A stretch of 64,000 nt of DNA from an uncultured Gammaproteobacteria bacterium. GTDB taxonomy: Bacteria > Patescibacteriota > Patescibacteriia > Magasanikbacterales > UBA922. Location of the stretch: positions 12,252-76,251 of the forward strand of contig CAYSXR010000002.1 of NCBI GenBank assembly GCA_964435035.1, read 5' to 3'. This document shows, piece after piece, positions 2,437 through 54,383 of this stretch. A program made the translations under genes and the position numbers. The notes under the pieces were generated by a model. That model did not search any database. It saw only the letters and a program-made list of their open reading frames with translations, and was not told the DNA's origin. How positions within the stretch are numbered: position 1 is the first letter of the stretch; every line of letters starts with the position of its first letter.

Positions 2437-5001
2437 ATGCAAGAAAAAATTGTTATCAAAGGGGCGAGGGAGCATAATCTTAAGAACATTTCGCTTGAGC
2501 TTCCACGCAACAAAATGATTGTGTTTACCGGACTGTCTGGATCAGGCAAGTCTTCTTTGGCTTTCGACACTATCTTTGCCGAAGGACAGAGACGCTATAT
2601 TGAGAGTCTTTCAGCCTATGCTCGCCAATTTCTTGGTGGGATGCAGAAGCCTGATGTGGATGAGATCGAGGGATTGTCTCCTGCAATTTCTATTGATCAG
2701 AAGGCGCATAGTGCGAATCCCCGTTCAACGGTTGCAACTATTACTGAAATTTATGATTATCTTCGTGTCTTATTTGCGCGTATTGGAGAGCCTTTTTGTC
2801 CGCAGTGTGGTACGAAGATTGAGAAGATGACGACTGATGAAATTGGAGAGAGAATACAAGCTACTGTTTCCAAAATAGAAAAGCTTTCAAAAGGTGCGGA
2901 GCTTATTATTTTTGCACCAGTGGTTCGAGGGAGAAAAGGGGAGTATTATCAGATGCTCTATGATATGTACAATTCTGGATATCTTGAAGTTCGAGTTGAT
3001 GGAAAAATGAAGAGTTTGCGCGATCGGATTGTTCTATCGAAAAATACCAAACACACCATTGAGATTGTGGTAGATAAAATTCCATTGGCTGGTCTTGATA
3101 CACAGCGAATGGCTGAAGCAGTTGAGTCAGCGGTTGATCTGTCCAATGGATTGGTAACTGTATCATTTGACGGGAAACAAGAAGTTATCTATAGCACGCA
3201 GTATTCGTGTCCGAATGATGGATTTGCGTTTCCTGAGATTGAACCTCGGTTGTTTAGTTTCAATAGTCCATACGGTTATTGTACCGCGTGTACTGGTCTT
3301 GGAACTAAAGAATTATTTAGTGAAGAAGTGTGTCTTGTGTGTCAGGGGAAGCGTCTCAATAATACGGCCCTTTCAGTTAAAATCAATAATAAAAATATTT
3401 ACGAGATCACGAGTCTCATGATTAGTGAAGCAAGAGATTTTTTTACTGATCTTCGCAGTACGTTATCTCCACGAGTGATTGAAATATCTACGGCTGCATT
3501 GAATGAAATTGATAATCGTTTGAAATTCATGTTTGATGTGGGACTTCATTATCTTACCCTAAACCGAACTGCAGGCACGCTCTCTGGAGGAGAATCACAA
3601 CGTATTCGATTGGCGTCACAAGTGGGTCAGCGTCTTGTCGGGGCATTATATGTGTTAGACGAGCCTACGATTGGGCTGCATCAGAAAGATAATGATCAGC
3701 TGGTTTCAACACTTCGAAATCTCTGTGATGTCGGGAATACGATTATTGTCGTCGAGCATGATGAAGATACGATTATGGTGTCTGACTGGATTGTGGACAT
3801 TGGTCCAGGTGCGGGAACGCATGGGGGGCATGTAGTGTATTCGGGACCTTTATCCAGTCTGCTTAATAAGAAAAAACCAGAGAGTGTTGCGTATGGTAGC
3901 AAGACGTATGGATCAGTAGAAAAATCTCTTACAGGAAAATATTTGCGTGGAGAGCAGAAAATTTCGGTTCCAGAAAACCGTAGAAAAGTGGACAATACTA
4001 CTCCAAAGATAAAAATTAAAGGAGCGCGGGAACATAATCTCAAAAATATTTCTGTTGAGATTCCGTTGAAACGATTAGTGTGTTTGACCGGAGTGTCTGG
4101 ATCTGGAAAATCCACGCTTATGCATTCGATTCTCTATCGTTCGGTTGCAAATAAATTGAACCATACTCGGTACCATGTCGGAGAGCATGACGCAGTACTC
4201 AATACTGAGTATATTGATAAAATTATCAAGATTGATCAGAAGCCGATTGGGCGGACGCCACGAAGTAATCCTGCGACCTATACCAAGGCATATGATCCGA
4301 TTCGTGAAATTTTTGCCATGACTCCTGAAGCAAAAATCAGAGGATACAAAATTGGACGATTTAGTTTCAACGTACCTGGTGGACGATGTGAGAATTGCGA
4401 AGGAAAAGGATCGCTTGAAATTGAAATGCATTTTCTTCCGACAGTTTCGATTGTGTGTGATGTGTGTAAAGGAGCGAGATTCAATGCGGAAACTCTTGCG
4501 ATTCATTATAAAGAAAAAAATATTGCACAAGTACTGGCAATGACGATTGAAGAGTCACGAGAGTTTTTTCAAGATATTCCTCCAATTGCAGATAAATTGA
4601 ACATGCTTCATGAAGTAGGATTGGATTATCTCACCCTTGGACAATCTGCAAGTACGCTCTCAGGTGGTGAAGCGCAACGAATCAAATTATCTCGAGAACT
4701 GTCAAAGCGTGCGACGAGCAAAACGTTGTATTTGCTTGATGAGCCTACGACTGGACTCCATTTTGATGATGTAAAAAAATTAATTGAAGTATTGCAAAAA
4801 CTTACGTCACACGGCAATACGGTCATGATTATCGAACACAATCTTGAGGTTATCAAATCTGCTGACTGGATTATTGATCTTGGGCCTGAAGGGGGAGATA
4901 AAGGTGGAAAGCTGATTGCGACTGGAACTCCAGAAGAGATTGCGAGAAAATCTACGTCGAGTCATACGGGGTATTATTTGAAGCGAGTATTATCTACTTA
5001 A
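2437..5001 (+). CDS. uvrA: Excinuclease ABC subunit A
   Basis: Two ABC ATPase modules ([12 protein letters not shown] and [10 protein letters not shown]), LSGGE signature motifs twice, and zinc-finger Cys clusters. Confidence 0.95.
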
Positions 5002-5162
5002 TTTTGTGATAAGGTATATAAAAAATACGATTACATTTGGATAGGTTCAGAAAAAAATGAAATTTGTGGTCTATCGAATTGATTGACAACTCTGTTATTT
5101 TATGACAGAGTTTTGTGTATGTGCCGTAATTCAGCGGTACCTGATTCAGGAGGGACAGAGTC

Positions 5163-5579
5163 ATGGAAGAGGGTGTCTATATACTCCATCCACCTGCTCG
5201 CGTTCATAGGGGACCGCGGCCCCATAACCTCATCATCGGGCAGGTGTCCGGGATGATCCACGGCGGAATCGCGGTGTTTCCTGTGGCTGGCGGTGACAAA
5301 GAGCTTGTGCTTGTGTCCCTTCGTTCTCTCGAGAATGCAGATCGCAGCGATTGGAAGAGCAACAGCTGGTTCATGTTCACGGTCGTGTGTCTCGGCTGCA
5401 TCTTGGAGTCGGGAGAGGCCCGTACGTTTGATGGGATCTCTCAGCTCCACCAGCGCGGACTCCACTACATCTGCTGCAGCTTCGATCTCAGTCGTGTGCC
5501 CGATCGCACGGTCACGATCAAGCTTCTCCCGGACGAGCCGCCTGATCCGTCGAAGGGGGCCACGTTCCGTACCTGCTGA
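5163..5579 (+). CDS. Hypothetical protein encoded in high-GC island A
   Basis: Strong RBS AGGAGGG 8 nt before the ATG. On a sampled stretch GC3 (~78%) exceeds GC1, which exceeds GC2, as expected for the coding frame. The ORF track also shows overlapping ORFs in other frames and on the minus strand across the same high-GC stretch. Confidence 0.4.
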   Translation: MEEGVYILHPPARVHRGPRPHNLIIGQVSGMIHGGIAVFPVAGGDKELVLVSLRSLENADRSDWKSNSWFMFTVVCLGCILESGEARTFDGISQLHQRGLHYICCSFDLSRVPDRTVTIKLLPDEPPDPSKGATFRTC

Positions 5580-5766
5580 ATTCATCTATCATACGGACCC
5601 TTCACCTGTGCGTGAAGTGGTCCGTGTGATTTCCATCTATCACTTTGTAAGTGATTTTTTTGTTAGCATGTCTATATTCACTGTATCATTGACTTTTTTG
5701 TATTTATATGAAAGAATCTTTTTTGTTGCGTTGCATTTTCGTACGCACACATGTGGGAGCATCTTC

Positions 5767-6066
5767 ATGCAACATGCGGTTACTGGCGCAATGAAGAAGG
5801 GTAAGGTACGACCCTTCACGGTCGATGATCTTCCTGTACTCGAGAAGAATGGCTACACCCTTCGGGTCAAGAGCTCGGCCATCGAGAATAACGACTTCGA
5901 GGTGGAAGTGGGTCCTCCGAGCAATTCGGCCTTTCAGGTGGGGACTGTTCGTACGTACGTGTTCCACGAGGGAGCACAGCCGGTCTACGATCCACGCCGA
6001 CGGTATGGCTACGCCGAACTCAAATTCGATCTGGCGACGTCTCACGCCACCCTCGAGCTCCGCTGA
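5767..6066 (+). CDS. Hypothetical small protein in high-GC island A
   Basis: ATG preceded by TGGGAG. The ORF ends just before a strong hairpin terminator at 6083-6117. Confidence 0.4.
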   Translation: MQHAVTGAMKKGKVRPFTVDDLPVLEKNGYTLRVKSSAIENNDFEVEVGPPSNSAFQVGTVRTYVFHEGAQPVYDPRRRYGYAELKFDLATSHATLELR

Positions 6067-6082
6067 GCCTCCGTGTCTTCCA

Positions 6083-6117
6083 TAGCAAGGACCTTTCCTT
6101 TCGAGGAATGGTCCTTG
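6083..6117 (+). terminator. Hairpin terminator closing high-GC island A
   Basis: CAAGGACCTTTCCTTTCGAGGAATGGTCCTTG: a 9-bp GC-rich stem. Confidence 0.6.
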
Positions 6118-6184
6118 CATCTTACATATTGTGGATACTGCTATTGTGGCAGTTTTTTTATATTATTTTTTCTTGGTATACTAC

Positions 6185-7441
6185 ATGTCTATGATATCTG
6201 ATGCTTTGCTAAAAATTGTAGCTTCACTTCCTCAGAATCCAGGGATTTATTTGTTTTATAATGTAAAAAAAGAATTAGTCTATGTGGGAAAAGCTACATC
6301 ATTACGAAGTCGTGTGCGAAGCTATTTTCTTGCACGTAAAACTCCTCGCCCGATTGAACAGATGATGCATGAGGTGATTACAATCAAATATATTGAAACT
6401 GATTCTGTACTTGAAGCAGTGATTCTCGAATCAATGTATATCAAAAAATTTCAACCAATTTATAATGTAGAAGGAAAAGATGATAAAAGTTGGAATTATA
6501 TTATGATTACGAATGAGCTGTATCCGCAGGTATATACAATGCGTGAACATGAGTATGTACGTCTGAGTTCTGATGAAATTAAAAAAGATTTTCTACACAT
6601 GTCCGGTCCATATCCTGGGTTGAATGCGAAAGTGACCATGAAGTTACTTCGAAGGTTATTTTATATTTCAACGTGCAAACCGAATGCGAAACGTCCTTGC
6701 TTGTATCGTCAAATGGGACAGTGTCTCGGTGTATGTACGGGAGAGATTACGAGTGGTGACTATCGGAGAAAAGTAATTCGACCCTTGATTACGTTTTTGT
6801 CAGGAGGAAAGAAAAAGCTTATTACATCTTTTGAAACTCAGATGGTGCGTGCTGCGCGTGCAGAGCAATTCGAAGAAGCGGCGCGTCTTCGTAATCAATT
6901 ACATGCACTTACCCGTATTCAGGATATTGCCCTTATTAATAAAGATTTCTTTGCTGATTTGGAACCAAAAAAAGAAGATACAATACACATGCGAATTGAA
7001 GGATATGATATTTCTAATTTAGGAAAGACAGGAAAAGTGGGGAGTATGGTGGTGTTTGATGCCGACGGGCCGATCAAACATTCGTATCGTAAATTTAAAA
7101 TTAAAACTGTTGAAGGGCAGAGTGATGTAGATTGTCTCGAAGAAGTATTAGTCCGTAGATTCAAGCATGTTGAGTGGAAATTTCCCACAGCAATTATGAT
7201 TGATGGGGGATATCCGCAAGTGAATCGCGCAAAAGAAGTGCTTACTCGACTCGGGATTGCAATTCCTCTGGTGGGTATTGCAAAAGGTCCGGAACGCAAG
7301 CGGAATGATTTTATTTTGGGTAATAGGGAGTCTGAGTTTGTGAAGTGGGTAGATCAACATCGAGAATTGTTGATCCGAGTAAGAGACGAAGCTCATCGTT
7401 TTGCGATTACATATCAAAGAAAGTTGAGGAAGATTGGATAA
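6185..7441 (+). CDS. uvrC: Excinuclease ABC subunit C, short form lacking the C-terminal HhH2 region
   Basis: N-terminal GIY-YIG (GIYLFYN..LVYVGKA), Cys-rich segment, and RNase-H-like endonuclease region (IEGYDISNLGKTGKVGSMVVFDADGP). Confidence 0.85.
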   Translation: MSMISDALLKIVASLPQNPGIYLFYNVKKELVYVGKATSLRSRVRSYFLARKTPRPIEQMMHEVITIKYIETDSVLEAVILESMYIKKFQPIYNVEGKDDKSWNYIMITNELYPQVYTMREHEYVRLSSDEIKKDFLHMSGPYPGLNAKVTMKLLRRLFYISTCKPNAKRPCLYRQMGQCLGVCTGEITSGDYRRKVIRPLITFLSGGKKKLITSFETQMVRAARAEQFEEAARLRNQLHALTRIQDIALINKDFFADLEPKKEDTIHMRIEGYDISNLGKTGKVGSMVVFDADGPIKHSYRKFKIKTVEGQSDVDCLEEVLVRRFKHVEWKFPTAIMIDGGYPQVNRAKEVLTRLGIAIPLVGIAKGPERKRNDFILGNRESEFVKWVDQHRELLIRVRDEAHRFAITYQRKLRKIG

Positions 7442-7536: not shown

Positions 7537-7989
7537 ATGTCATGGGAACAGCGACGACACGAGTGGAAACAATCTCCGCCTGAAATAGATAAAATTGATG
7601 AGTGGTTTCATTCATTATCATCAGACGAGCGCTTTGACGCATTTTTTGGTTCTGCAAGTTTTAGAGATATTACTGATCAGTTTCAGCGTTATTTGCATAG
7701 TATTTTTGATGGTCAAAAATCTTCACAATTTCGTTTTGAGCCAACTTCAAAACTTATTTCTTTTGTGTTGGGTAAAATAGTCATAAAAACTCCTGAGTTT
7801 CGTAACACGGTTAAAGATAACCAGAACGTGGTGAAGGTTTTGTTGGAGCAAGAATCTCGAGTTATGTGTAGAATGTATGCAATTTGCACCTATGAACCCC
7901 AGAAAAAACCGGGTATATCAGAATTTGCATATAATTTGGACATTCCATGGAAATGGGAGGAAACTGCGGTTGAGATACTTGGGTTTTGA
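7537..7989 (+). CDS. Hypothetical protein
   Basis: 150-aa ORF bracketed by hairpin terminators. No recognisable motif. Confidence 0.45.
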   Translation: MSWEQRRHEWKQSPPEIDKIDEWFHSLSSDERFDAFFGSASFRDITDQFQRYLHSIFDGQKSSQFRFEPTSKLISFVLGKIVIKTPEFRNTVKDNQNVVKVLLEQESRVMCRMYAICTYEPQKKPGISEFAYNLDIPWKWEETAVEILGF

Positions 7990-10490: not shown

Positions 10491-13262
10491 ATGCTTTTTA
10501 CTAAGCCCACACAATTATCTGTATTAAGTTGCACTCTGTGTGGAGGGACAGGGAAAGAAAATGGAAAGAAATGTCCTCAGTGTAGAGGTATGCTTCATGG
10601 AATTTTTGACCACACTACTTTTGTGTATTTTGGAGAACAGTATACTGTGTATTCGATTGGTCTACGTCGAGCTAGAAAATTTTTGAATGTTTTTAGAATT
10701 ATTGGTGCGCTAGTGGTATCATGTGCATCATTTGCAGGTTTTTTTTATTTTTTAATTCACGGAAATCGTCAAGATGCATTATTTAATCCTGTTTTTTGGT
10801 TCGGGCCCACTGCTCATAATTCGTTTCGAGCGCTCGTTTGGATAGGATTTCTCGGGTGTATCTATGTGTGGTATCGGGTATTGGTACAGAGAACTCCTCC
10901 ATCACATTTTACCTACCATGGAACGCAATTAATTCCTACTCAATTATCAGATGATACGTCGGAAATCACATGGGAAAAAGTACATAAATTGCCGCATAAA
11001 AAATATCTTGATATATCGCCATATCTTTCTCCTGAAGCGAGGGTTGTGCTGGAAAAGAGTTTTGAAATTGCACGAGAGTATGGGGCGGGACAGATTTCAC
11101 CATTACATCTCTTGTATGCGTTACTTTCGGATTCTAGCGTCGGTGAGGTTGGTATTAGATTACATATTCCGATGAAGTCGTTGCAGGCAATGATTGGCAA
11201 AACGTTTGGAGAAAAGAAACCATTGGTTCATACTATTTCGCCCACTTTTTCACCCGATACTCAAAATATTATTTTTCGATCATATTTTTTTACACGCGAA
11301 AAACATGACCCTCAAATACGTGTAACAACATTATTTAAATTTGTAGTTGAGCAGAATGATCAAATTCAAGAAATTTTATATGATATTGAAGTGGATAAGA
11401 CCAAACTAGATAATGTGATCGAGTGGGCTCGAATTCGGGAAACGATGACTGAAAATTATCGTGTGTTTGCGAGAGCTACTGCTGGAGTTTCGAAGTATGG
11501 AATGGATAGGGCTATGACTGCAGTTGCCACTCCCGCACTCAATCAGATGAGTCATGATCTCACTATTGCTGCAAAATATGGTGATATTGATATGTGTGTT
11601 GCGCGTGACAAAGAGATTGAAGAAATTTTGCGTATTATTGAAGGTGGGGGAAAAAATATCATGTTGGTTGGTGATCATGGTGTTGGCAAGGTCACGATTG
11701 TTCAGGGAATTGTAGAACGAATGATTAAGGGAGATGTACCTAAACTGTTGCAAGATAAGCGTATGGTGCAGTTGTCGGTAACTTCTCTTTTGGCAGGTAC
11801 TACGGTGGCTGGTGCAGAGGAGAGACTTATTCGTATTATGAATGAGATTACTCGGGCAAAAAATATTATTCTTTTTATTGATAATATTCATGATTTGATT
11901 GGAGTATCTGATGGGGGAGGACAAGGACTTGATGTTTCTGAGTCTCTTGCTGAGTATCTGCGAGCCGATCGATTTATTATGTTTGCAACAACATTACCTG
12001 ACGCGTATGCACGATTTATCGCACATTCAGAAATCGGTACCGTATTTTCAAAAATTGATATCCGTGAAATGGAAATCAATCAAGCAATTCGAGTGCTTGA
12101 ATCAAAGGCAGGCCAGATTGAATACAAAACCCGTGTATTTTTTTCGTATGATGCTGTGGAAAAGACAGTACAATTAGCACACAAATTTTTTACTGATCGA
12201 AATCTTCCTGAGAGTGCTCTTGCACTTATGTCTGAAGCGGGAAGTTATGCTAGGAGTGCACATGGTGAACATACATTAGTATCTGCTGATGATGTGGGTG
12301 CTGTAGTTGCTGATAAGACGGGAATTCCTGTGACGAGTATTACGGCAAATGAGTCAGAAAAATTACTCAAGCTTGAAGAAGAAATGCATACACAGGTTAT
12401 TGGACAGTCAGAAGCTGTAACGTTGGTTGCGAATGCGCTTAGAAGAGCTCGTGCAGACATGCGTTCGACTACACGTCCTATCTCCAGTTTTCTGTTCCTT
12501 GGTCCTACGGGGGTTGGAAAAACCGAACTTGCAAAGACTATTGCACGAGTATATTTTGGTGGTGAAGCTCGTATGATTCGAATTGATATGAGTGAATATC
12601 AGGATAATAATTCCATTTATCGTTTGATTGGGCAAGTAGGTGTGCAGGGTTCTGGTATTCTTACCCAAGCTGTAAAAGATCATCCGTTCTCGCTTGTACT
12701 TCTTGACGAATTTGAAAAAGCTGATTCAAATATTTTGAATTTGTTTTTGCAAGTTCTTGACGATGGACGCTTGACTGATAGTATGGGAAGAGTGGTAGAC
12801 TTTACGAACACAATTATTATTGCTACTTCAAATGCTGGAACTGAATATGTTTCAAAACGCATGAAAGAGGGGGCAACAAGCGAGGACGTTCGACAGGAAT
12901 TGATTCGCGGAGAATTAAAGAGTTATTATCGACCTGAATTATTGAATCGTTTTGATGGAATCGTACTCTTCAAGCCACTCACTGATCAAGAGATCAAACA
13001 GGTTGCCAAATTAATGCTTACACAGGTAGAAAAAGATTTGGAGGCTAAGGGCGTGTCATTCCATGTGGAAGATGTAGCGCTTGATGAACTTGCTCGAGTG
13101 GGATTTGATCCTGAGTTTGGTGCCCGACCTATGCGGAGAGCAATTCAGGATCGAGTGGAAAATGAACTTGCAAATTTAGTACTCAAAGGACAATTACAGA
13201 GAAGAGATATCATTGTTCTGGGAGAAGGACTTGTGCTCAGGGTTGAAAAACCAGTTAGTTGA
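10491..13262 (+). CDS. Membrane-anchored ClpC/ClpB-like AAA+ ATPase with N-terminal zinc ribbon
   Basis: N-terminal CxxC..CxxC ribbon plus 2 TM helices, Clp_N repeats, and two AAA+ modules. AAA-1 has an atypical Walker A (GDHGVGKV) and a Walker B Glu-to-Asn change (LFIDNIHD). AAA-2 is canonical (GPTGVGKTE; LLDEFEKA). Confidence 0.8.
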   Translation: MLFTKPTQLSVLSCTLCGGTGKENGKKCPQCRGMLHGIFDHTTFVYFGEQYTVYSIGLRRARKFLNVFRIIGALVVSCASFAGFFYFLIHGNRQDALFNPVFWFGPTAHNSFRALVWIGFLGCIYVWYRVLVQRTPPSHFTYHGTQLIPTQLSDDTSEITWEKVHKLPHKKYLDISPYLSPEARVVLEKSFEIAREYGAGQISPLHLLYALLSDSSVGEVGIRLHIPMKSLQAMIGKTFGEKKPLVHTISPTFSPDTQNIIFRSYFFTREKHDPQIRVTTLFKFVVEQNDQIQEILYDIEVDKTKLDNVIEWARIRETMTENYRVFARATAGVSKYGMDRAMTAVATPALNQMSHDLTIAAKYGDIDMCVARDKEIEEILRIIEGGGKNIMLVGDHGVGKVTIVQGIVERMIKGDVPKLLQDKRMVQLSVTSLLAGTTVAGAEERLIRIMNEITRAKNIILFIDNIHDLIGVSDGGGQGLDVSESLAEYLRADRFIMFATTLPDAYARFIAHSEIGTVFSKIDIREMEINQAIRVLESKAGQIEYKTRVFFSYDAVEKTVQLAHKFFTDRNLPESALALMSEAGSYARSAHGEHTLVSADDVGAVVADKTGIPVTSITANESEKLLKLEEEMHTQVIGQSEAVTLVANALRRARADMRSTTRPISSFLFLGPTGVGKTELAKTIARVYFGGEARMIRIDMSEYQDNNSIYRLIGQVGVQGSGILTQAVKDHPFSLVLLDEFEKADSNILNLFLQVLDDGRLTDSMGRVVDFTNTIIIATSNAGTEYVSKRMKEGATSEDVRQELIRGELKSYYRPELLNRFDGIVLFKPLTDQEIKQVAKLMLTQVEKDLEAKGVSFHVEDVALDELARVGFDPEFGARPMRRAIQDRVENELANLVLKGQLQRRDIIVLGEGLVLRVEKPVS

Positions 13263-15002: not shown

Positions 15003-15037
15003 CACTTGACTTTTCCCCCTCTATCAGCTATAGTATC
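15003..15037 (+). promoter_or_regulatory. Sigma70-like promoter upstream of rplU (TTGACT-17-TATAGT)
   Basis: Near-consensus -35 and -10 hexamers with a 17-bp spacer, about 50 nt upstream of the rplU ATG. Confidence 0.5.
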
Positions 15038-15083
15038 CCTGTTTCCCAAAACATTTATTAAAAATCTTAGTTATTTATTCCGT

Positions 15084-15395
15084 ATGTTTGCAGTGATTCA
15101 AACCGGTGGAAAACAGTATCTGGTGAAGGCCGGAGATGTTATCAGAGTTGAAAAAATTGAGCTTGAAAATGGTCAAGAAGCAGTATTTGATAAAGTACTT
15201 CTCACTGCTGATGAAAATGGTGAAAATGTCGTATTCGGCAAGCCATACATTGATGGTGTGAGTATCCGAGCCACTGTTGAAGAACAGGGGCGACATGCGA
15301 AAGTTCGTGTAGTTAAATACAAACGCAAAGTTCGCTATAAGAGAACTATTGGACACAGACAAGCGTTTACCAAAGTAAAAATTTCAAAAGTGTAA
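15084..15395 (+). CDS. rplU: 50S ribosomal protein L21
   Basis: MFAVIQTGGKQYLVKAGDVIRVEKI is the bL21 signature. No rpmA follows it. Confidence 0.9.
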   Translation: MFAVIQTGGKQYLVKAGDVIRVEKIELENGQEAVFDKVLLTADENGENVVFGKPYIDGVSIRATVEEQGRHAKVRVVKYKRKVRYKRTIGHRQAFTKVKISKV

Positions 15396-15405
15396 TACTG
15401 AATAT

Positions 15406-15438
15406 TAAAAACTCCTGCTAAAGCGGGAGTTTTTTTAT
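15406..15438 (+). terminator. Rho-independent terminator after rplU
   Basis: AAAAACTCCTGCTAAAGCGGGAGTTTTTTT: hairpin followed by a T-run. Confidence 0.7.
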
Positions 15439-15493
15439 TGACTAATTTAGTTGAGTAGGTTAGTCTAGTGGCGCGTTACACCAAGGAGGGCGC

Positions 15494-16000
15494 ATGTTCA
15501 ATTGGCTCAAAACTCTGTTTGGTATTCGTAAGGGTCCCCCTGCACTGGAAATTGTGTGGAGTTCGTATACTCCAAAACCACTGCCACCGGCAACGAATGT
15601 CTGCTGTGTCGAGGGTAAGCATGGCGAACTCATCCACTACCGCTGTGGACACACTCAGCCTGAGAGGTACTCCTTCAATCTCTACGGAGATACAATCACC
15701 TGGGATGACGAGAATTACGAACGACGTGATATCTGTGGTGAGTGCTGGCTGGAGAAGCTTCATCCTGGTGTCATCCGCTGTGCGCGGTGTGGGCTCGGCA
15801 TTCCACCGGGTTTTCATGTTGCGCTCTACAATGATGATGAATGCTACAACCCGAAGTGGAAGACTGTGGTCACCGGGTATCCGGGTAAGATGGTGATCGG
15901 GTGTGCACGTGTCGACTGTGAGCCTGGCGGCTTTGTTGCCGGCGTGTGGATGGGTGATCGTGTGGATCTCTTGTTTGGTCAAGGCTCGATTTTCCTCTGA
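15494..16000 (+). CDS. Cys/His-rich hypothetical protein in high-GC island B (putative zinc-binding)
   Basis: RBS CACCAAGGAGGG precedes the ATG. Cysteine pairs CC, CGEC, CARC, CARVDC. Hairpin terminator downstream. Confidence 0.45.
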   Translation: MFNWLKTLFGIRKGPPALEIVWSSYTPKPLPPATNVCCVEGKHGELIHYRCGHTQPERYSFNLYGDTITWDDENYERRDICGECWLEKLHPGVIRCARCGLGIPPGFHVALYNDDECYNPKWKTVVTGYPGKMVIGCARVDCEPGGFVAGVWMGDRVDLLFGQGSIFL

Positions 16001-16143
16001 GTTCATCGCACCAAGAGACCTTCTCGAGAATCCCTCAGACAGTTGAGTTTCTACTCAGACATCCGACCAAGTGCTTGAAATCACTGTAGGTCGGATGTCT
16101 TCTCAAAATTAATATAATAAAATTCCGCTGTATTGGCGGAATT

Positions 16144-16743
16144 TTATATTGATGTTCTATTTTTTAGTGCACTCGAGAGGGTAATATCATCTGCATATTG
16201 CAAATCGCTTCCCATGGGGAGTCCACGTGCGAGACGAGAGACTTTGATTGCAGGAGTGATTTCTTTGATCTTTTTTTCGAGATACATCATGGTGGTTTCT
16301 CCATGTAGATCAGGATTGAGTGCGAGAATAATTTCTTCGATCTGACTTTTGCGGATACGTGCGAGTAGTTCGGGTATTTTTAGACCTCGTAATGAGTTTT
16401 CATCATGCCCTTTGATAACTCCTCGAAGTATGTGGTATCCACCGCGATACGTACCTGTTTTTTCTATTACTTCACGATCTTGGGGTTCAGCTACGATACA
16501 GACGGTCTTTGGGTCTCTTTGAGTTGAACTGCAGAGAATGCAAGGGTTGGTATCAGAAAATGTCCAACAGATTTCACAGCTTTTGACACTTTCGATAAGT
16601 TCTTTTAAGGCTAATGTTAGTTCGGCTACATCTTTTTTTCCAGATTTGAGCAAATAAAAAACAAAGCGTTCTGCAGTTCGAGGACCGACGCTTGGGAGAC
16701 TCCCGAACGCTTGAATGAGGTTTTGAATGCTCTTTGAATACAT
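16144..16743 (-). CDS. recR: Recombination protein RecR
   Basis: HhH segment (GPRTAERFVFYLL), C4 zinc finger and Toprim region. Confidence 0.9.
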   Translation of the reverse strand: MYSKSIQNLIQAFGSLPSVGPRTAERFVFYLLKSGKKDVAELTLALKELIESVKSCEICWTFSDTNPCILCSSTQRDPKTVCIVAEPQDREVIEKTGTYRGGYHILRGVIKGHDENSLRGLKIPELLARIRKSQIEEIILALNPDLHGETTMMYLEKKIKEITPAIKVSRLARGLPMGSDLQYADDITLSSALKNRTSI

Positions 16744-29092: not shown

Positions 29093-29111
29093 GCTTATTT
29101 TAATAACTATA

Positions 29112-29142
29112 AAAAAGCCTTTATTTTAAGGGCTTTTTTGTT
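29112..29142 (+). terminator. Terminator after rfbD; left copy of a 35-bp direct repeat
   Basis: AAAAAAGCCTTTATTTTAAGGGCTTTTTTGTTTT. The same sequence recurs at 30011-30042 with one mismatch. Confidence 0.7.
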
Positions 29143-29154
29143 TTTATACTGTTA

Positions 29155-29183
29155 TTGACATAAATCCTTTTTTATGGTAATTT
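29155..29183 (+). promoter_or_regulatory. Sigma70-like promoter TTGACA-17-TAATTT for the island C Nudix gene
   Basis: Hexamers with a 17-bp spacer located 75 nt upstream of the ATG at 29258. Confidence 0.45.
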
Positions 29184-29257
29184 GTATTGTTTTCTTGGAA
29201 TATCCGAGATACAAGGTAACCTTTACATTGTTCCACCTGGCATTCGCCAAAGAGGAC

Positions 29258-29962
29258 ATGGCTGATAGTGATATCAGAGGTGTTTCTATGGGTTTCGAAA
29301 TGACGCCTATTCCGCCCGAGAAGGCGCGTGGGTGGAAGCTCGAGATCGATGGTGTCGAAGCTACGGCTTCGCTCATCGAGCTCGAGAGCAAGTTCGGAAA
29401 GCTGGTCTACGGTCTTCGCCCCGAAGGCTATGACAGCTGGGTGTTCTACGAGACCGGCGGGGGCGGGTCAGTGACCCTGCCCTTCAGCTGCAACGCCAAG
29501 ACGGGAGAGCTCCTCGTGGGTCTTCTTCCGGAAGTCCGCCCCAACATGGGCCCAGGTCTTCATCTGTGCATCGTTGGCGGCTTCAAGGAGCCGAACGAGA
29601 GCCATGTGGAGGCACAGGCTCGTGAAGCGGATGAGGAGGTTGGCATGGGCCATCTCGAGGCTATTGAGCTCGAGGGTTTGCCCTATAACTCCAACAGAAT
29701 GCTGTTCGTGGCCGATGCCTCTCAGGGTGAGGGAGTCCGCGCCTGGGGAATTCACATCCCATTCGCGTGTCTCGTGCCGAACGACGATGGTGGCTACCAT
29801 CTGACCAACCTCCAGCAGGCGGATGCTGATCGTCTCGGCAAGGCGAAGAACGTCGTCTTCTTCCCGTGGCATATCGCCACGAAGAAGACCTCTGACGCAC
29901 TCGCGCACGCTGCGATCCTGCAGCTACTCGCGATGCAGTGGGAGAACGGTCACATCCCCTGA
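29258..29962 (+). CDS. Nudix hydrolase encoded in high-GC island C
   Basis: Canonical Nudix box GGFKEPNESHVEAQAREADEEVGM. RBS AAAGAGGA. About 58% GC, against a low-GC genome. Confidence 0.65.
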   Translation: MADSDIRGVSMGFEMTPIPPEKARGWKLEIDGVEATASLIELESKFGKLVYGLRPEGYDSWVFYETGGGGSVTLPFSCNAKTGELLVGLLPEVRPNMGPGLHLCIVGGFKEPNESHVEAQAREADEEVGMGHLEAIELEGLPYNSNRMLFVADASQGEGVRAWGIHIPFACLVPNDDGGYHLTNLQQADADRLGKAKNVVFFPWHIATKKTSDALAHAAILQLLAMQWENGHIP

Positions 29963-30010
29963 CCTGTTCCTCCACCCGTCCCACTTGGATTTATTCAAGT
30001 GGGACATCTT

Positions 30011-30042
30011 CAAAAAAGCCTTTATTTTAAAGGCTTTTTTGT
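30011..30042 (+). terminator. Terminator after the island C gene; right copy of the 35-bp direct repeat
   Basis: AAAAAAGCCTTTATTTTAAAGGCTTTTTTGTTTT. Confidence 0.7.
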
Positions 30043-30108
30043 TTTACAAAACACTAGATTCTTGCTAAGCTTGAATATATCTCTATATTTAGTTTTATAG
30101 CCTATTTT

Positions 30109-49285: not shown

Positions 49286-49697
49286 ATGCAGGTATTGTAG
49301 CTAAGATGGCGAAATATCACAAGCTGGTTTTGGTTGACTTTCGGTGGGATGTATTGTATGCTTTTCTGCGGATTTTGCCCGAAGTACGGGTCCGTCACCC
49401 AAGTACTGTGGAGGTTAGTTCATGTTCACTCTGGTGTGCGTCATGGGACTCTGGACCCAGATCGTGTGTGTCCCGGACAAGGGAAGGAAGATTACTCGAG
49501 TTCGGAATCGCAAACATGGCTGGCACGTCGGAGGGGCGGGACAGCTTCCGATGGGTCATCGGCGGAAATTCAGGAAGCCGCGTTGAGTGACTGGGAGTGG
49601 TAGATCTGGGAACAGATCTTAGCTCAGGAGCGCTTTCCTGGATTCATCATGTCGTCGACGGGACTGTGCATCGCACGGTCCCGTCAGTTCTCTTACC

Positions 49698-49728
49698 TAT
49701 TTATTCGAGCCCTATCGGGCTTTTATTA
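49698..49728 (+). terminator. Intrinsic terminator ending a high-GC plus-strand transcript within island D
   Basis: GAGCCCTATCGGGCTTTTATTATTTT. Confidence 0.6.
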
Positions 49729-49833
49729 TTTTACCAAATAAAGTATTGACTTTATGATAATGTTTATATATCCTATTGCGGTGCTTAGCTCGACCTCGGT
49801 CGAGTTGTGCCGTCAACCAGAGGAAACATCATC

Positions 49834-50040
49834 ATGTCAGATTCAGAAAGAAATGATCAGCCGCGCCTTCGGAGTCGCCGTCGAGTCCATACTGCCGGAG
49901 CTTTCGATCACATTCAACGTGTGCTCGTCGACGAAGAGCAGAATATGCCACCCTATCGGAACGTAGGGCATCAGCAGCCCGGAGTGCGTCTCAGTGATGC
50001 ATGCATCATTCCCAACCAGCGGCCGGACTACAAGTCCTGA
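49834..50040 (+). CDS. Hypothetical small protein (68 aa) in high-GC island D
   Basis: RBS AGAGGAAA 7 nt upstream of the ATG. Arg-rich N-terminus. A bidirectional terminator lies at 50108-50134. Confidence 0.3.
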   Translation: MSDSERNDQPRLRSRRRVHTAGAFDHIQRVLVDEEQNMPPYRNVGHQQPGVRLSDACIIPNQRPDYKS

Positions 50041-50107
50041 TCCGTGATCCTCTTGCCCGGAGACTGCTCGCTCAATGCGAGTAGTCTTCCTGGCCCCTTC
50101 GTCAAAT

Positions 50108-50134
50108 TAAAAGAAGCTCCTAATAGGAGCTTCT
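50108..50134. terminator. Bidirectional terminator between island D and elp3
   Basis: AAAAGAAGCTCCTAATAGGAGCTTCTT. Confidence 0.6.
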
Positions 50135-51807
50135 TATGTTATTTCTTTAATCATGTACGTTCCTTCTTTTTTGTAGCCAAGCTTTTCATAATATCCCCGT
50201 ACACCTACTCCGGAAATTACGGCAAGTTTTTTTACGTTATTTTTTTTGGTAATGCGTTCAGCCTCGGCCATTAATTTTTTTCCATATCCTTTGTGCTGAC
50301 TACCGATTGTTTTTGTCTTTCCAATTCCAATCATTTGTCCGTATACATGGAGTTCACGGATGAATGCGCTTCCTTTGATTTCGGGCATGAGGGTGTGCAG
50401 GGTTTCTAGTTGTCTGGTTTTCTGGTTGTCTGGTTCGTGAGGAATGCGGAGACGAAGAAAACCGTAGACTGCGATACGATTTTTATCTTCCATTGAAATA
50501 AAGTATTCGGTCCCTCCAATAGTTTCGTAGGTGTCTACGAAAACGTGTGGTTCAGCGTCTGGATCTATCTTGTCTTTTTGGCGATAAATCTCTCGGCAAC
50601 GCAAACACTCGCAATGTTTTCCTTCTTTTTTGAGTTGGTACTCGAGCATTTCACGGAGGTTGGTGATGATATTTCCATTTTCAATTTCTGTTGCAGGAAT
50701 ATCTCGAATAAGTCGGGAAATACGGCAATAGCGTGGAGTTGCAAGTTTCATTTCGAGTAATGCCCGGAACAATCCTTCATCTCCATATGATTTGTAACGA
50801 CCATCTAAGAACCATTGGTATAATTCTGCTGATTTAATTACGGTGTTTGGATAAATCTTAATCATGTCTGGACGAAGTCCTAAATCTGAAAAGATTTCTT
50901 TATACATTTCAATATCATGTTCAGGTGTGGTTCCAGGTAAATCTGGCATGAAGTGTAAATCCACTTTGAATCCCGCTTCGCGAAGCAAATAAATTGCGTC
51001 ACGGAATTGTTGTACCGTATGTCCTCGATTGATCAGCTTTAAAATAGTATCATCAGTTGCTTGAAGTCCGAGTTCAATTCGCGTACAACCTTGTAAACGC
51101 ATGTGATGAATAGATTTCGGTGAAATTGCATCGGGTCTGGTTTCAAGGGTCAAGCCAATAATACGATGTCCGGTTGATTCATTGATGGTTTGTTCCATAT
51201 CTAATGCAGCTTGTAGGTCAGCAATAGATTTGTCATTCCAATATTCTTCAGGTGTGGGACCTATAGGTACTTCTCGATTGAAGTCATTGCAAGCTTTAAA
51301 GGATTCGAGAATAAACCAATATTGGTATTTGAGAGGGTAGGCATTCCAGGTTCCACCTTTTAATATGTATTCAATTTTGTCTGTTGGGTGTCCGTTCAAT
51401 TCAAGCATTTCAAGACGTTTTTTCATTTGCTCGTACGGACTAAAATCAAGTCTGAGAGCTCGTGCTGCTGCTGGTTCGGTGGCAATATAGCTTTTTGGCA
51501 TTCTAAGTTCGGTAGGGCAGTAAATGCATTTACCGGGGCAGGTATAGGGTTTTACCAGAGAGGTAATTATTACTACTCCAGAGAGTGTTCGCACATTTGC
51601 TTTGCGTAGGAAAAATTCCATCTGTTCGTCGGGTAGAATACTTTTCTTTTCAATAAGACTCTGGTAGGCTATGAGCAGTGCCTGATTTGCAGGCTGTCGA
51701 ATATTTAGCTTCGAAGCACCACGACGTTTTGCATCGTCAAAATCGTCCTTGGTTAGAGGCTTGTCGTCGACAATATATTTCATTAGTTTTTCAGCGATTT
51801 CGTTCAT
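50134..51807 (-). CDS. elp3: Elp3-family radical-SAM/GNAT protein (tRNA uridine-34 modification acetyltransferase homolog)
   Basis: Radical SAM core (CPGKCIYCP) and C-terminal GNAT domain (HKGYGKKLMAEAERI). 557 aa. Confidence 0.85.
   Translation of the reverse strand: MNEIAEKLMKYIVDDKPLTKDDFDDAKRRGASKLNIRQPANQALLIAYQSLIEKKSILPDEQMEFFLRKANVRTLSGVVIITSLVKPYTCPGKCIYCPTELRMPKSYIATEPAAARALRLDFSPYEQMKKRLEMLELNGHPTDKIEYILKGGTWNAYPLKYQYWFILESFKACNDFNREVPIGPTPEEYWNDKSIADLQAALDMEQTINESTGHRIIGLTLETRPDAISPKSIHHMRLQGCTRIELGLQATDDTILKLINRGHTVQQFRDAIYLLREAGFKVDLHFMPDLPGTTPEHDIEMYKEIFSDLGLRPDMIKIYPNTVIKSAELYQWFLDGRYKSYGDEGLFRALLEMKLATPRYCRISRLIRDIPATEIENGNIITNLREMLEYQLKKEGKHCECLRCREIYRQKDKIDPDAEPHVFVDTYETIGGTEYFISMEDKNRIAVYGFLRLRIPHEPDNQKTRQLETLHTLMPEIKGSAFIRELHVYGQMIGIGKTKTIGSQHKGYGKKLMAEAERITKKNNVKKLAVISGVGVRGYYEKLGYKKEGTYMIKEIT
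50401..50437. repeat. GTCTGGTT / CTAGTT word repeat copy embedded in-frame in the elp3 coding region
   Basis: GGTTTCTAGTTGTCTGGTTTTCTGGTTGTCTGGTT encodes the HEPDNQKTRQLET insert on the minus strand. Confidence 0.7.
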
Positions 51808-53086: not shown

Positions 53087-53140
53087 ACATCCGGTTTCTT
53101 TCATGACTGGGTTTGTTCCATCACCAAGGAGGTGTGGTGT

Positions 53141-53428
53141 ATGCGGAGCTACCGATTGTTTACTGAAGCGGTCAAGAAAATCATCCCCGATGTCGAGCTG
53201 CATACAGCTCTTGATGCTCAGCAGGAGACGATCGTCGATAGCCTCCTCCCTCAGAATGTGGATGATGTTCCGATCGAGGTCATCATTTTGTATCTCGAAG
53301 GTGGTAGACATGGCGCGCTCCTCAAAAGGCTCAAAGGAGCTGAAGCTGTGCGTGTGCTCTTCGAGGAGTGGAAACATGGCAAGTGGAGCGACTGGGTCAG
53401 GGTGGGGGCGAGGCGCGAGGGTAGATGA
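53141..53428 (+). CDS. Hypothetical small protein (95 aa) in high-GC island E
   Basis: RBS CACCAAGGAGG 8 nt upstream of the ATG. Hairpin ACGTAGGGT..ACCCTACGT downstream. Confidence 0.4.
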   Translation: MRSYRLFTEAVKKIIPDVELHTALDAQQETIVDSLLPQNVDDVPIEVIILYLEGGRHGALLKRLKGAEAVRVLFEEWKHGKWSDWVRVGARREGR

Positions 53429-53495
53429 AAGAGCGGGAGCAGCGCCAGGTGAGTAATTAATGAAGGAAGCACGTAGGGTGTGGATTCCCCATACC

Positions 53496-54383
53496 CTACG
53501 TTCCTGTAATCAGGCATGCGACCGACCCATCGAATTTCCATCCTTTGTCTAGAGCTTTTTGCAGTCCTGCGATTGATAGGGCAGAGTTTGGGGAGACTAA
53601 AATTTCACAGGTGTCCTCGGTGAGTTTGATTGCAGATTGAATTTTCTCATCGCTTACAATCCAACCAGATCCCTTGGATTTTTTTATTATGTCGATTACT
53701 TTTTCTTTTCGGTGAGCCACATTGTCGACAATTGCACTAGCGAGTGATGTTTCTGTATGGGTAAATTCTGTATCAAAATATTCGGCCATAGGGTGACAAT
53801 GTTCGGTTTGTACAATATGAATTTGTGGTTTTGGTTCTGATAGTTTTTCAAATTCAAGTCCTAGTGCTTGTGCAGTGGTTCCTGAAGATGTGGGAATGAA
53901 AATGGCGGACAAATTTGGAATGTGAGCGAGTTCTTTTGCGAGTTCAAAGTATCCCTCGAGTGCGAGGTCATCAGTTGATTGTCGGAGATTCAATGCGGTT
54001 CCTGTTTTGTGCATGTGAAGTGCTTCTTTTTTTGGTCGTTCGGTTTGTATAATCGTAATATGTGCATCTTCTTCTTTTTCTGTTTCAAGAATTATGAGTT
54101 TTTTTGGTTGTATTTTTTGTCCGACAAATACCGTGAGTTTGAGTGGGGTTTCAGTATTGTTTCGATTATGTGATCGTACATACTTTATTGCAGAGAGCGC
54201 TGCATTTCCAGATGATGAAATAACAAAAGACGTTTTATTTTCTTTTTGCACATAATGCTCAATCATGTGGGGAATTGAACGTCCCTTGTGCGATCCAAAC
54301 GCGTGTAGATCTTCACGTTTGAGGTACACTTCAACCCCGAACATGTCGTTTAGATTTTGATATGATTGTTGAGTAGTTTTCAT
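53496..54383 (-). CDS. PLP-dependent enzyme of the tryptophan-synthase-beta (fold type II) superfamily
   Basis: LKREDLHAFGSHKGRS lysine motif. Start moved to the internal ATG at 54383 so that it does not overlap the divergent promoter. Confidence 0.55.
   Translation of the reverse strand: MKTTQQSYQNLNDMFGVEVYLKREDLHAFGSHKGRSIPHMIEHYVQKENKTSFVISSSGNAALSAIKYVRSHNRNNTETPLKLTVFVGQKIQPKKLIILETEKEEDAHITIIQTERPKKEALHMHKTGTALNLRQSTDDLALEGYFELAKELAHIPNLSAIFIPTSSGTTAQALGLEFEKLSEPKPQIHIVQTEHCHPMAEYFDTEFTHTETSLASAIVDNVAHRKEKVIDIIKKSKGSGWIVSDEKIQSAIKLTEDTCEILVSPNSALSIAGLQKALDKGWKFDGSVACLITGT

Follow-up and report, generated by a model that had tools for sequence, protein, structure and literature searches.

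We analysed a 64,000-nucleotide stretch of DNA (the window; positions 12,252 to 76,251 of contig CAYSXR010000002.1, assembly GCA_964435035.1), and in particular the GC-rich segment that separates its uvrA and uvrC genes. This segment is, with a probability of about 0.62, an accessory-gene hotspot anchored by uvrA and uvrC in one clade of Candidatus Magasanikbacteria, a slot in which units are gained, lost and swapped. An initial annotation, made from the sequence alone, had described the segment as a single self-contained cassette (cassette A). It consists instead of two units, since relatives may carry one of its open reading frames (ORFs), ORF1 and ORF2, without the other. The hotspot is of an ordinary, known kind, with one oddity: its genes are GC-rich in every relative. 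The features of the segment and of its two anchors are given below in window coordinates; loci of relatives carry L numbers.

2437..5001, + strand: uvrA, the 5' anchor (NCBIfam NF001503, 1282 bits, UvrA equivalog).
5088..5112, + strand: hairpin after uvrA that resembles a terminator and has a T-rich tail (terminator scan).
5148..5154, + strand: Shine-Dalgarno sequence AGGAGGG, ending 8-9 nt before the ORF1 ATG and kept in L001.
5163..5579, + strand: ORF1, probably encoding a 138-aa orphan protein (ratio of nonsynonymous to synonymous substitution rates, dN/dS; in-frame indel; one homolog).
5594..5624, + strand: GC-rich hairpin after ORF1, without a T-run (folding).
5640..5661, + strand: short hairpin with T7 behind it, closing the ORF1 module (folding; too AT-rich for the terminator scan).
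5689..5717, + strand: ORF2 promoter, TTGACT-N17-AAGAAT with an upstream TG (promoter scan).
5755..5759, + strand: weak Shine-Dalgarno sequence GGGAG, 7 nt before the ORF2 ATG.
5767..6066, + strand: ORF2, encoding a 99-aa clade-restricted protein, downstream of uvrA (dN/dS, family, AlphaFold2).
6085..6118, + strand: GC-rich hairpin after ORF2, with 15-nt arms (6085-6099 and 6104-6118), a UUCG-type loop and no T-run (inverted-repeat search).
6137..6160, + strand: canonical intrinsic terminator, a 7-bp stem (hairpin 6137-6153) followed by T7 (terminator scan).
6185..7441, + strand: uvrC, the 3' anchor (NCBIfam TIGR00194, 320 bits, UvrC equivalog).
5100..5585, - strand: antisense 161-aa ORF, a codon-aligned shadow of ORF1 (dN/dS 0.74; no Pfam match).
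5704..6120, - strand: antisense 138-aa ORF, a codon-aligned shadow of ORF2 (no Pfam match).

With both anchors matched to family profiles, a GC scan bore out the GC-rich kilobase that had been reported between them: the GC content of the window is 0.398 (standard deviation 0.059 over 150-bp windows), and the 150-bp GC content is at least 0.52 at 5099-5659 and at 5728-6156. The reported 55-60% GC applies to the two ORF bodies (59% for ORF1 and 57% for ORF2) but not to the entire gap (5002-6184), the GC content of which is only 0.495; that of the spacer between the ORFs (5650-5749) is 0.29. The AGGAGGG motif, the ATG at 5163, the 138-aa ORF and the 99-aa ORF at 5767-6066 were all read as described, and the TTGACT box noted in the spacer is part of the ORF2 promoter, which is kept in relatives. 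The hairpin placed at 6083-6117 is present, but its arms are of 15 nt rather than 9 bp and it has no T-run; the canonical T-run terminator is the second hairpin, at 6137-6153. Four further islands with a 150-bp GC content of at least 0.52 (15465-16075, 29218-30038, 49326-50136 and 53101-53582; cassettes or islands B to E) were all recovered where the initial annotation had named them.

A UvrC query returned 32 loci from species-representative genomes. Nearly all of them are labelled Candidatus Magasanikbacteria, Magasanikiibacteriota, or with the generic label of a bulk submission of metagenome-assembled genomes (MAGs). The organism is a member of Candidatus Magasanikbacteria, in the candidate phyla radiation (CPR), and the earlier assignment to a CPR genome was thus correct. 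A number of loci (L005, L007, L008, L010-L013, L017, L020, L022 and L032) are titled "uncultured Gammaproteobacteria bacterium" yet carry UvrA and UvrC of Magasanikbacteria; the Gammaproteobacteria titles on these MAG records are evidently a generic mislabel from bulk submission. L001 and L016 are the same contig.

In most of the 32 loci uvrA adjoins uvrC on its upstream side, and this adjacency is therefore ancestral. The size of the gap between them varies from 4 bp to 4.5 kb across relatives. Short gaps are found in several distant members whose UvrC is 46-61% identical (4 bp in L018, 32 bp in L031, and 98-166 bp in L030, L029, L035 and L021). Longer gaps occur in other members, at about 57-62% UvrC identity; they are not GC-rich in L012, L014, L017, L019, L022 and L033, and that of L020 reaches a GC content of 0.63 over 300 bp against a background of 0.505. 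In the close clade (UvrC at least 75% identical, UvrA 89-97% identical), every member has a GC-rich gap of 1.1-4.5 kb, with a 300-bp GC maximum of 0.58-0.63 versus a background of 0.40-0.46. The segment 3' of the terminator, TTTTTTTATAT..TTGGTATACT, which is the uvrC promoter region, is kept in all close relatives. The comparison of spacing that the initial annotation had proposed thus favours a gap that is normally empty (essentially so, at 4-170 bp, in several distant members) and is filled in the close clade. Such patchy presence between conserved flanks, with an empty site in some relatives, is what characterizes an accessory-gene hotspot.

The abrupt compositional jump at the borders of the segment might also suggest an assembly chimera or contamination. 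However, the same uvrA-ORF1 or uvrA-ORF2 junctions were found in independent assemblies (NCBI GCA_052033375.1 and JGI 3300056623) and in the Logan runs SRR26425196, SRR15221268, SRR15237813, SRR30502334, SRR26424809 and SRR26425193. The artefact is refuted by this replication, and we give it practically no weight.

The independence of the two units was evident from comparisons with the close relatives. By blastn, the first 664 bp of the window gap, which comprise the ORF1 unit, are common to the window and L001 only (90.6% identity) and have no similarity to L002, whereas gap positions 687-1114, which comprise the ORF2 unit, match L002 at 80.8%. Homology to L001 stops at ~5665 and homology to L002 starts at ~5688, and the junctions between units fall between the T-run of one and the -35 box of the next. 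The L001 slot contains ORF1 followed by an unrelated 106-aa gene and no ORF2, while in the L002 and L003 slots ORF2 comes straight after uvrA and is followed by pyrC, pyrD and further orphans. Overall, ORF1 was found only in the window and L001, and ORF2 is absent from L001, L007 and L032. The hairpin at 5088-5112 was assigned to the ORF1 module because L002 and L005 carry a different uvrA terminator. The units have a common layout: a TTGACx promoter (evident for ORF2 only), a leader of about 40-60 nt, a Shine-Dalgarno sequence, a GC-rich ORF and then two hairpins, a long GC hairpin that lacks a T-run and a short one that has it. Comparison of all the small hotspot proteins with hhalign showed them to be unrelated, with one weak exception, a link between the second-gene family of L008, L009, L010 and L038 and the second gene of L001. 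A type II toxin-antitoxin pair was considered for ORF1 and ORF2 and rejected: a terminator and a promoter separate the genes, the two assort independently, and neither has a Pfam or NCBIfam match.

ORF2 has a history of its own. In the core, L005 is as close to the window as L002 (96.5% for UvrA and 88% for UvrC in L005; 96.8% and 87% in L002), but their ORF2 products are 40% and 80% identical, respectively, to that of the window. The history of ORF2 is therefore incongruent with that of the core. At least four deep allelic types were distinguished (window/L002/L004/L039; L005; L008/L010; L009/L038). The family comprises 8 sequence clusters in 5.8 billion proteins, and every member that could be located lies directly downstream of uvrA, with uvrC next where the contig extends that far.

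Several lines of evidence establish that ORF2 is a real gene, for a folded, cytoplasmic protein of 99 aa: (i) purifying selection, with a dN/dS of 0.20 against L002 and 0.23 against L004; (ii) a third-position bias of the differences with L002 (15/12/32 at codon positions 1/2/3); (iii) conservation of the protein beyond that of the DNA, as tblastn detected homologs in L005, L008 and L010 at 39-40% identity (E-values down to 1.6e-16) where blastn matched the promoter alone and nothing in the coding sequence; and (iv) an AlphaFold2 model, from 8 sequences, with a predicted local distance difference test score (pLDDT) of 91.7 and a predicted template modelling score of 0.83. The predicted fold is beta-rich with one helix, and fold searches returned no match (best E-values of 0.34 in the PDB and 0.48 in BFVD). 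Invariant columns number 19 in an alignment of 7 sequences and 15 in an alignment of 8. The promoter is kept in L002 and in L005, though the L005 ORF2 is merely 40% identical. A hairpin is found at the place corresponding to 6085-6118 in all ORF2 homologs, with two-sided compensatory changes in 3 of 14 pairs.

ORF1 is probably a protein-coding gene as well. Compared with L001, its sense frame has a dN/dS of 0.38 and the antisense frame one of 0.74, and synonymous changes account for 19.5 of 46 (42%) versus about 23% under neutrality, an excess that the antisense frame does not show. The only indel between the two copies is of 6 nt and in frame, and the NCBI annotation of the relative calls the same frame. 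The well-spaced AGGAGGG is conserved. These observations argue against an alternative in which ORF1 arose by chance or is decaying, as an open frame in stop-poor, GC-rich DNA, and ORF2 alone is real; we consider it unlikely, but it has to be taken seriously. The hairpin at 5594-5624 has retained its pairing in L001 through one compensatory change (TTCAC/GTGAA to TCCAC/GTGGA). In favour of the alternative, three frames are open across the ORF1 region, and the dN/dS of 0.38 rests on merely 46 substitutions. In addition, the sole homolog of ORF1 is P0001 on L001 (82% identity; word-indexed search of 5.8 billion proteins and full HMMER search of 1.84 billion representatives), its AlphaFold2 model, from an alignment of 2 sequences, has a pLDDT of 36, and the promoter scan gave no clear promoter.

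The antisense ORFs at 5100-5585 and 5704-6120 are shadows of the sense frames and not genes. They stay open because GC3-rich genes (GC3 being the GC content at third codon positions) avoid TTA, CTA and TCA, and the antisense product of 5704-6120 is 59% identical to L002 by tblastn, versus 80% for ORF2 in the sense direction. Both ORF1 and ORF2 thus behave as + strand coding sequence, as the initial annotation had argued against shadow ORFs.

A GC-rich intergenic region in an AT-rich genome classically denotes a structured non-coding RNA, and the strong hairpins of the segment, together with a folding z-score of -3.4 for 5140-5660, would fit such an RNA. Yet this z-score stems from the 3' hairpins: the ORF1 coding sequence alone does not fold better than shuffled sequences (z = -0.53), nor to any extent does the ORF2 region (z = -1.1), and compensatory pairs are found in the 3' hairpin only. 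Rfam produced nothing meaningful at the gathering threshold over the whole window or at an E-value threshold over 4950-6250, nor did a tRNA scan. Moreover, ORF2 is conserved as a protein (40% identity, tblastn E-value of 1.6e-16) where nucleotide similarity is undetectable. For ORF2 the RNA interpretation is effectively refuted, and for the segment as a whole we regard it as highly improbable.

Searches for relatives outside the clade were negative. ORF1 and ORF2 had no match in Pfam, NCBIfam, PHROGs or PADLOC, and word-indexed searches of 5.8 billion proteins, in which both ORFs and the ORF2 family profile served as queries, returned clade-internal matches only. No relatives of either ORF were found in IMG/VR scans and none of ORF1 in a scan of JGI metagenome contigs; plasmid and phage DNA collections gave nothing significant for the region, and sequence profile searches of the PDB nothing significant either. 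An anti-phage defence system was rejected since PADLOC had no match for ORF1 or ORF2, and a prophage remnant or phage moron since there was no PHROG match and nothing significant in IMG/VR, phage DNA or BFVD. In the collections searched, no donor lineage or reservoir was found outside this slot and this clade, and no host, phage or plasmid donor of the kind that had been proposed emerged.

The slot cargo of relatives consists of orphans, pyrC and pyrD, and pyrD was followed in the search for a donor. The nearest relatives of the pyrD from a relative's hotspot are at most 61% identical and likewise GC-rich; their contigs have a GC content of 0.40-0.55 and some are compositionally patchy. No clear non-CPR donor emerged among them, and two of the pyrD-bearing contigs, examined closer, have ORFs in common with Magasanikbacteria or Patescibacteria loci. 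The pyrD relatives fit a pool circulating inside Patescibacteria. GC-rich pyrimidine genes are found among the cargo of sister-genome slots at L002 8505-10695, L003 2428-4617, L005 6168-7235 and L007 7188-9365. The slot pyrC encodes a TIGR00856-like dihydroorotase (283 bits), and the best PDB matches of the slot pyrD are class-1A dihydroorotate dehydrogenases; the pyrD of L002 is broken into two ORFs, and its uvrA is split as well. With pyrC and pyrD in the slot, a lineage that is usually regarded as lacking nucleotide synthesis has made a metabolic gain.

The composition of the cargo bears on how it was acquired. GC content at codon positions 1/2/3 is.61/.46/.69 in ORF1 and.64/.41/.65 in ORF2, versus.51/.39/.34 in uvrA. 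In slot cargo of all lineages, the frequencies of A and C at third codon positions (A3 and C3) are 0.01-0.15 and 0.23-0.52, respectively, compared with about 0.25-0.3 and 0.07-0.10 in core genes of the same strand, and the four other islands of the window also fall in the codon regime of the cargo, foreign to the core. The claim that the region is compositionally foreign was also supported by its dinucleotide signature, which it has in common with other islands of the window: five of the six islands are nearer to other islands than to the core (the exception is cassette B), with a dinucleotide distance (delta*) for A1 of 71 to the other islands and 180 to the core, and a pooled delta* of 124.

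The low C3 of the core reflects a strong replication-strand skew: core genes of the + strand have a C3 of 0.07-0.10, compared with 0.22-0.23 for the two sampled from the minus strand. Most 400-bp windows show a positive GC skew (typically 0.1-0.35), and the 64 kb therefore appear to lie on one replichore. The strand skew of the core is missing from islands A and C, but not clearly so from islands B, D and E.

These contrasts are what would be expected from the recent transfer of a self-contained cassette from a GC-rich donor outside the CPR, a host or a phage, the GC content of which had not yet ameliorated. A GC3 of 0.65-0.70 versus 0.34 in the core, islands without the strand-specific C3 depletion of the core, an island dinucleotide signature distinct from that of the core and mostly common among islands (5/6), and a T-run-less hairpin behind each ORF all speak for it. 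So does the synonymous divergence (dS) of ORF1 between the window and L001, which at 0.23 is below the 0.60-0.69 of the flanks and fits a more recent spread, although the mosaicism of the flanks weakens this argument. We nevertheless find such an import rather unlikely. ORF1 and ORF2 assort independently, neither has a homolog beyond the clade and the slot in 5.8 billion proteins and 1.84 billion representatives, and nothing was found in IMG/VR, PHROGs, or phage and plasmid collections. The ORF2 promoter shares the AT-richness of the host and is kept across allelic types. A simple recent import is also hard to reconcile with ORF2 itself, which occupies the same slot with a GC3 of 0.64-0.83 in AT-rich genomes despite saturated synonymous divergence. 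Relatives carrying these ORFs at native low GC, which the initial annotation had named as a refutation of its reading, were not encountered: the copies in relatives are equally GC-rich.

The persistence of this offset deserves attention. ORF2 is GC3-rich in all nine lineages examined: its homologs have a GC3 of 0.64-0.83 beside a uvrA of 0.31-0.47, even between alleles with a dS above 1. Its GC3 is approximately that of the local uvrA plus 0.2 to 0.36 (Pearson r 0.64, from n = 9 non-independent points). Between the window and L002 it stays at about 0.66-0.68 at a dS of 0.66, where, by a back-of-the-envelope two-state model that was not fitted, neutral decay toward the core would have roughly halved the excess. 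Either an unseen GC-rich pool has supplied ORF2 alleles again and again, or GC3 is kept high by some force.

According to the second possibility, the genes would be long-term residents, their high GC3 would be actively maintained by GC-biased gene conversion in a slot of very frequent recombination or by selection on codons or mRNA structure, and the GC content would be a consequence of the hotspot. This is supported by the high GC3 of ORF2 in all nine lineages despite saturated dS between types, by the rough tracking of local uvrA GC3, by mosaic recombination in the flanks, and by a dS of ORF2 (0.66, window vs L002) in the range of the core (0.60 for uvrA and 0.69 for uvrC, window vs L001), which suggests co-divergence with GC3 unchanged. 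However, the AT-rich spacer (0.29) has not been driven GC-rich, though it may be constrained by its promoter and terminator function, and an effect of +0.3 in GC3 exceeds, to our knowledge, anything reported for biased gene conversion in bacteria. Polarised counts of AT to GC versus GC to AT changes gave mirror-image skews in ORF2 and uvrA that are due to parsimony bias, and separate neither possibility from the other. On balance, active maintenance appears unlikely to us, slightly more so than recent import. A related proposal, which we hold to be doubtful, is that a small set of accessory genes has been resident in fixed slots of AT-rich Magasanikbacteria chromosomes beyond synonymous saturation and held about 0.3 in GC3 above the core, with A-ending codons almost absent, and that ORF2 is a trans-lineage polymorphism. 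If this were true, balancing or diversifying selection would be acting on ORF2, and its product would have a fold that no solved structure has so far shown.

We then considered how units might enter and leave the slot. Site-specific mobile cassettes, either integron-like or integrative elements that target terminators, would account for unit-end hairpins that are conserved in structure and variable in sequence, and cassette C lies between 34-nt direct repeats of a terminator. In contrast, no direct repeats were found around cassette A; the hairpins at 5594-5624 and 6085-6118 are near-perfect, and no GTTRRRY/RYYYAAC (attC R''/R') cores were seen in them by eye, no pattern search having been made; no integrase or recombinase was detected in the window gap or in the scanned gap ORFs of relatives; and ORF2 has its own promoter. 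Ten hotspot cargo ORFs of this kind (nine from the gap of relatives, and the window gene 3' of uvrC) had no recombinase or integrase domain. A search for repeats common to the islands, such as those of the template/variable type of diversity-generating retroelements, gave none except the 34-nt pair at cassette C. Site-specific mobility is, for cassette A, very unlikely.

The flanks support the hotspot reading. Along uvrA, the nucleotide identity of the window to L001 forms a mosaic, with values of 74-99% per 150-bp window, which indicates frequent homologous exchange among these lineages. The slot holds here two independent monocistronic + strand units. Unit 2 consists of the promoter, the Shine-Dalgarno sequence, ORF2, the GC hairpin and the T-run terminator, and its ORF2 family occupies the position after uvrA in most of the clade, in several deeply diverged allelic types. 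Unit 1, made up of a replacement uvrA terminator, the strong Shine-Dalgarno sequence, ORF1, the GC hairpin and the T7 hairpin, is rarer and probably a later insertion between uvrA and the ORF2 promoter. We propose that such units pass from one related lineage to another when DNA is taken up and recombines homologously through the conserved flanks, the junctions falling where a terminator meets a promoter, and apparently without site-specific mobility machinery. As the cargo has a foreign codon regime in common, it would belong to a compositionally distinct accessory pool that circulates among Patescibacteria. Speculatively, we would guess that the proteins have a role in conflict or in interaction with a partner (immunity, anti-defence or host interaction), because of the hypervariable slot, the deep alleles, their orphan status and their small size.

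Some observations weigh against this scenario. No donor or external reservoir was found in the collections searched, and exchange from a pool is deduced from distribution and incongruence. ORF1, with its single homolog, its pLDDT of 36 and its lack of a clear promoter, could be decaying or non-functional. If the genes are long-term residents, their persistent high GC3 needs an extra force that the scenario does not include. Finally, the direct repeat at cassette C hints that some insertions may use another mechanism.

The slot can be compared with known systems of accessory genes. As Oliveira, Touchon and Rocha reportedly described in 2017, chromosomal hotspots hold variable accessory genes between two conserved core genes. 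The uvrA-uvrC slot resembles such hotspots of horizontal gene transfer (HGT) in its conserved flanks, its emptiness in some relatives and other cargo elsewhere, its deviant composition and its mosaic flanks. It differs in being very small and filled with single-gene units that have their own ribosome-binding site (RBS), ORF and hairpins, in having no mobile-element genes, and in the positional conservation of the ORF2 family across the clade. Phage morons are said by Hendrix and co-workers to be autonomous promoter-gene-terminator units of deviant GC content between conserved genes; the units described here are similar in the ORF2 unit's own promoter, in having one ORF and one terminator each, in their deviant GC content and in having neighbours that are adjacent in relatives, but they lie in a cellular chromosome between DNA-repair genes, outside any phage context, and have no PHROG or IMG/VR match. 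Like integron cassettes, they are small single-ORF shuffling units with a trailing hairpin whose structure is conserved beyond its sequence, but no attC core was seen in their hairpins by eye, no integrase was detected in the gap ORFs scanned, they have no attI, ORF2 has its own promoter, and the islands are dispersed rather than arrayed.

A survey of groundwater Patescibacteria (PMC12455944) describes genomic islands and individually transferred genes, and reports that most transfers are between Patescibacteria. The present slot is likewise in a CPR lineage with transfer between genomes, and those results fit a gene pool confined to the group. The survey required an identifiable donor-recipient pair, of which there is none here, and in its passages searched no account was found of a persistent GC3 offset or of the uvrA-uvrC slot.

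The other GC-rich islands of the window offer further points of comparison. Cassette B (15396-16143, between the genes 15006-15395 and 16144-16743) lies at a site that is empty (47-71 bp) in L006, L008 and L009. L011 has a 63% identical homolog of its Cys-rich 168-aa protein, and in L005 the site is filled by about 525 bp in which no similarity to cassette B could be detected. This site is a second hotspot of the same kind as the uvrA-uvrC slot. Cassette C encodes a NUDIX-box protein (ORF 29174-29962) and is flanked by a 34-nt direct repeat (29111-29144 and 30012-30045, 33/34 identical). The repeat is itself a bidirectional terminator hairpin (AAAAAAGCCTTTATTTTAAGGGCTTTTTTGTTTT) and looks like a duplication of a target terminator on insertion, or like attL/attR-like ends. 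Island D (49286-50133) has two TTGACT promoter-like boxes, two GC hairpins and ORFs of at most 108 aa, in which GC1, GC2 and GC3 are about equal, without a clear frame signal. The RBS context CACCAAGGAGG, which the initial annotation had noted in two islands, is exact in cassettes B (15479-15489) and E (53122-53132), and similar ACC(C)AAGGAG contexts precede the GC-rich pyrC in L002 and L007. This type of context may be a common translation-initiation signature of the GC-rich gene pool.

At the 3' side of the slot, the -10 box of uvrC (TGgTATACT, 6174-6182) lies 2 nt from the first ATG (6185), a second ATG is found at 6191, and the motif is kept in all close relatives; judging from this arrangement, translation of uvrC may use a leaderless mRNA that starts near 6191. 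UvrC is only 418 aa long here, and in all Magasanikbacteria relatives the match is of comparable length. It matches NCBIfam UvrC profiles of 567-698 positions, and the best stretch covers profile positions 3-233 of 574; UvrC appears to be without its C-terminal part. Just 3' of uvrC, a 150-aa gene (7537-7989) is 27-52% identical in relatives, versus 87-99% for its neighbours. It has no family match and a native low GC content (about 0.37); therefore, not all the fast-changing genes of this region are GC-rich.

CPR genomes are tiny and streamlined, and the few accessory genes that they exchange likely matter for their dependent lifestyle. The uvrA-uvrC interval is an easily recognised slot in which a Magasanikbacteria clade stores and swaps single-gene units. 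It would contribute two new, unannotated protein families, of which that of ORF2 has a confident structural model without a match among solved or viral folds. The locus also lends itself to a clean test of whether a foreign composition denotes recent transfer or a maintained state in CPR genomes, and the answer bears on how HGT detectors based on GC content and codon usage are to be read in CPR lineages.

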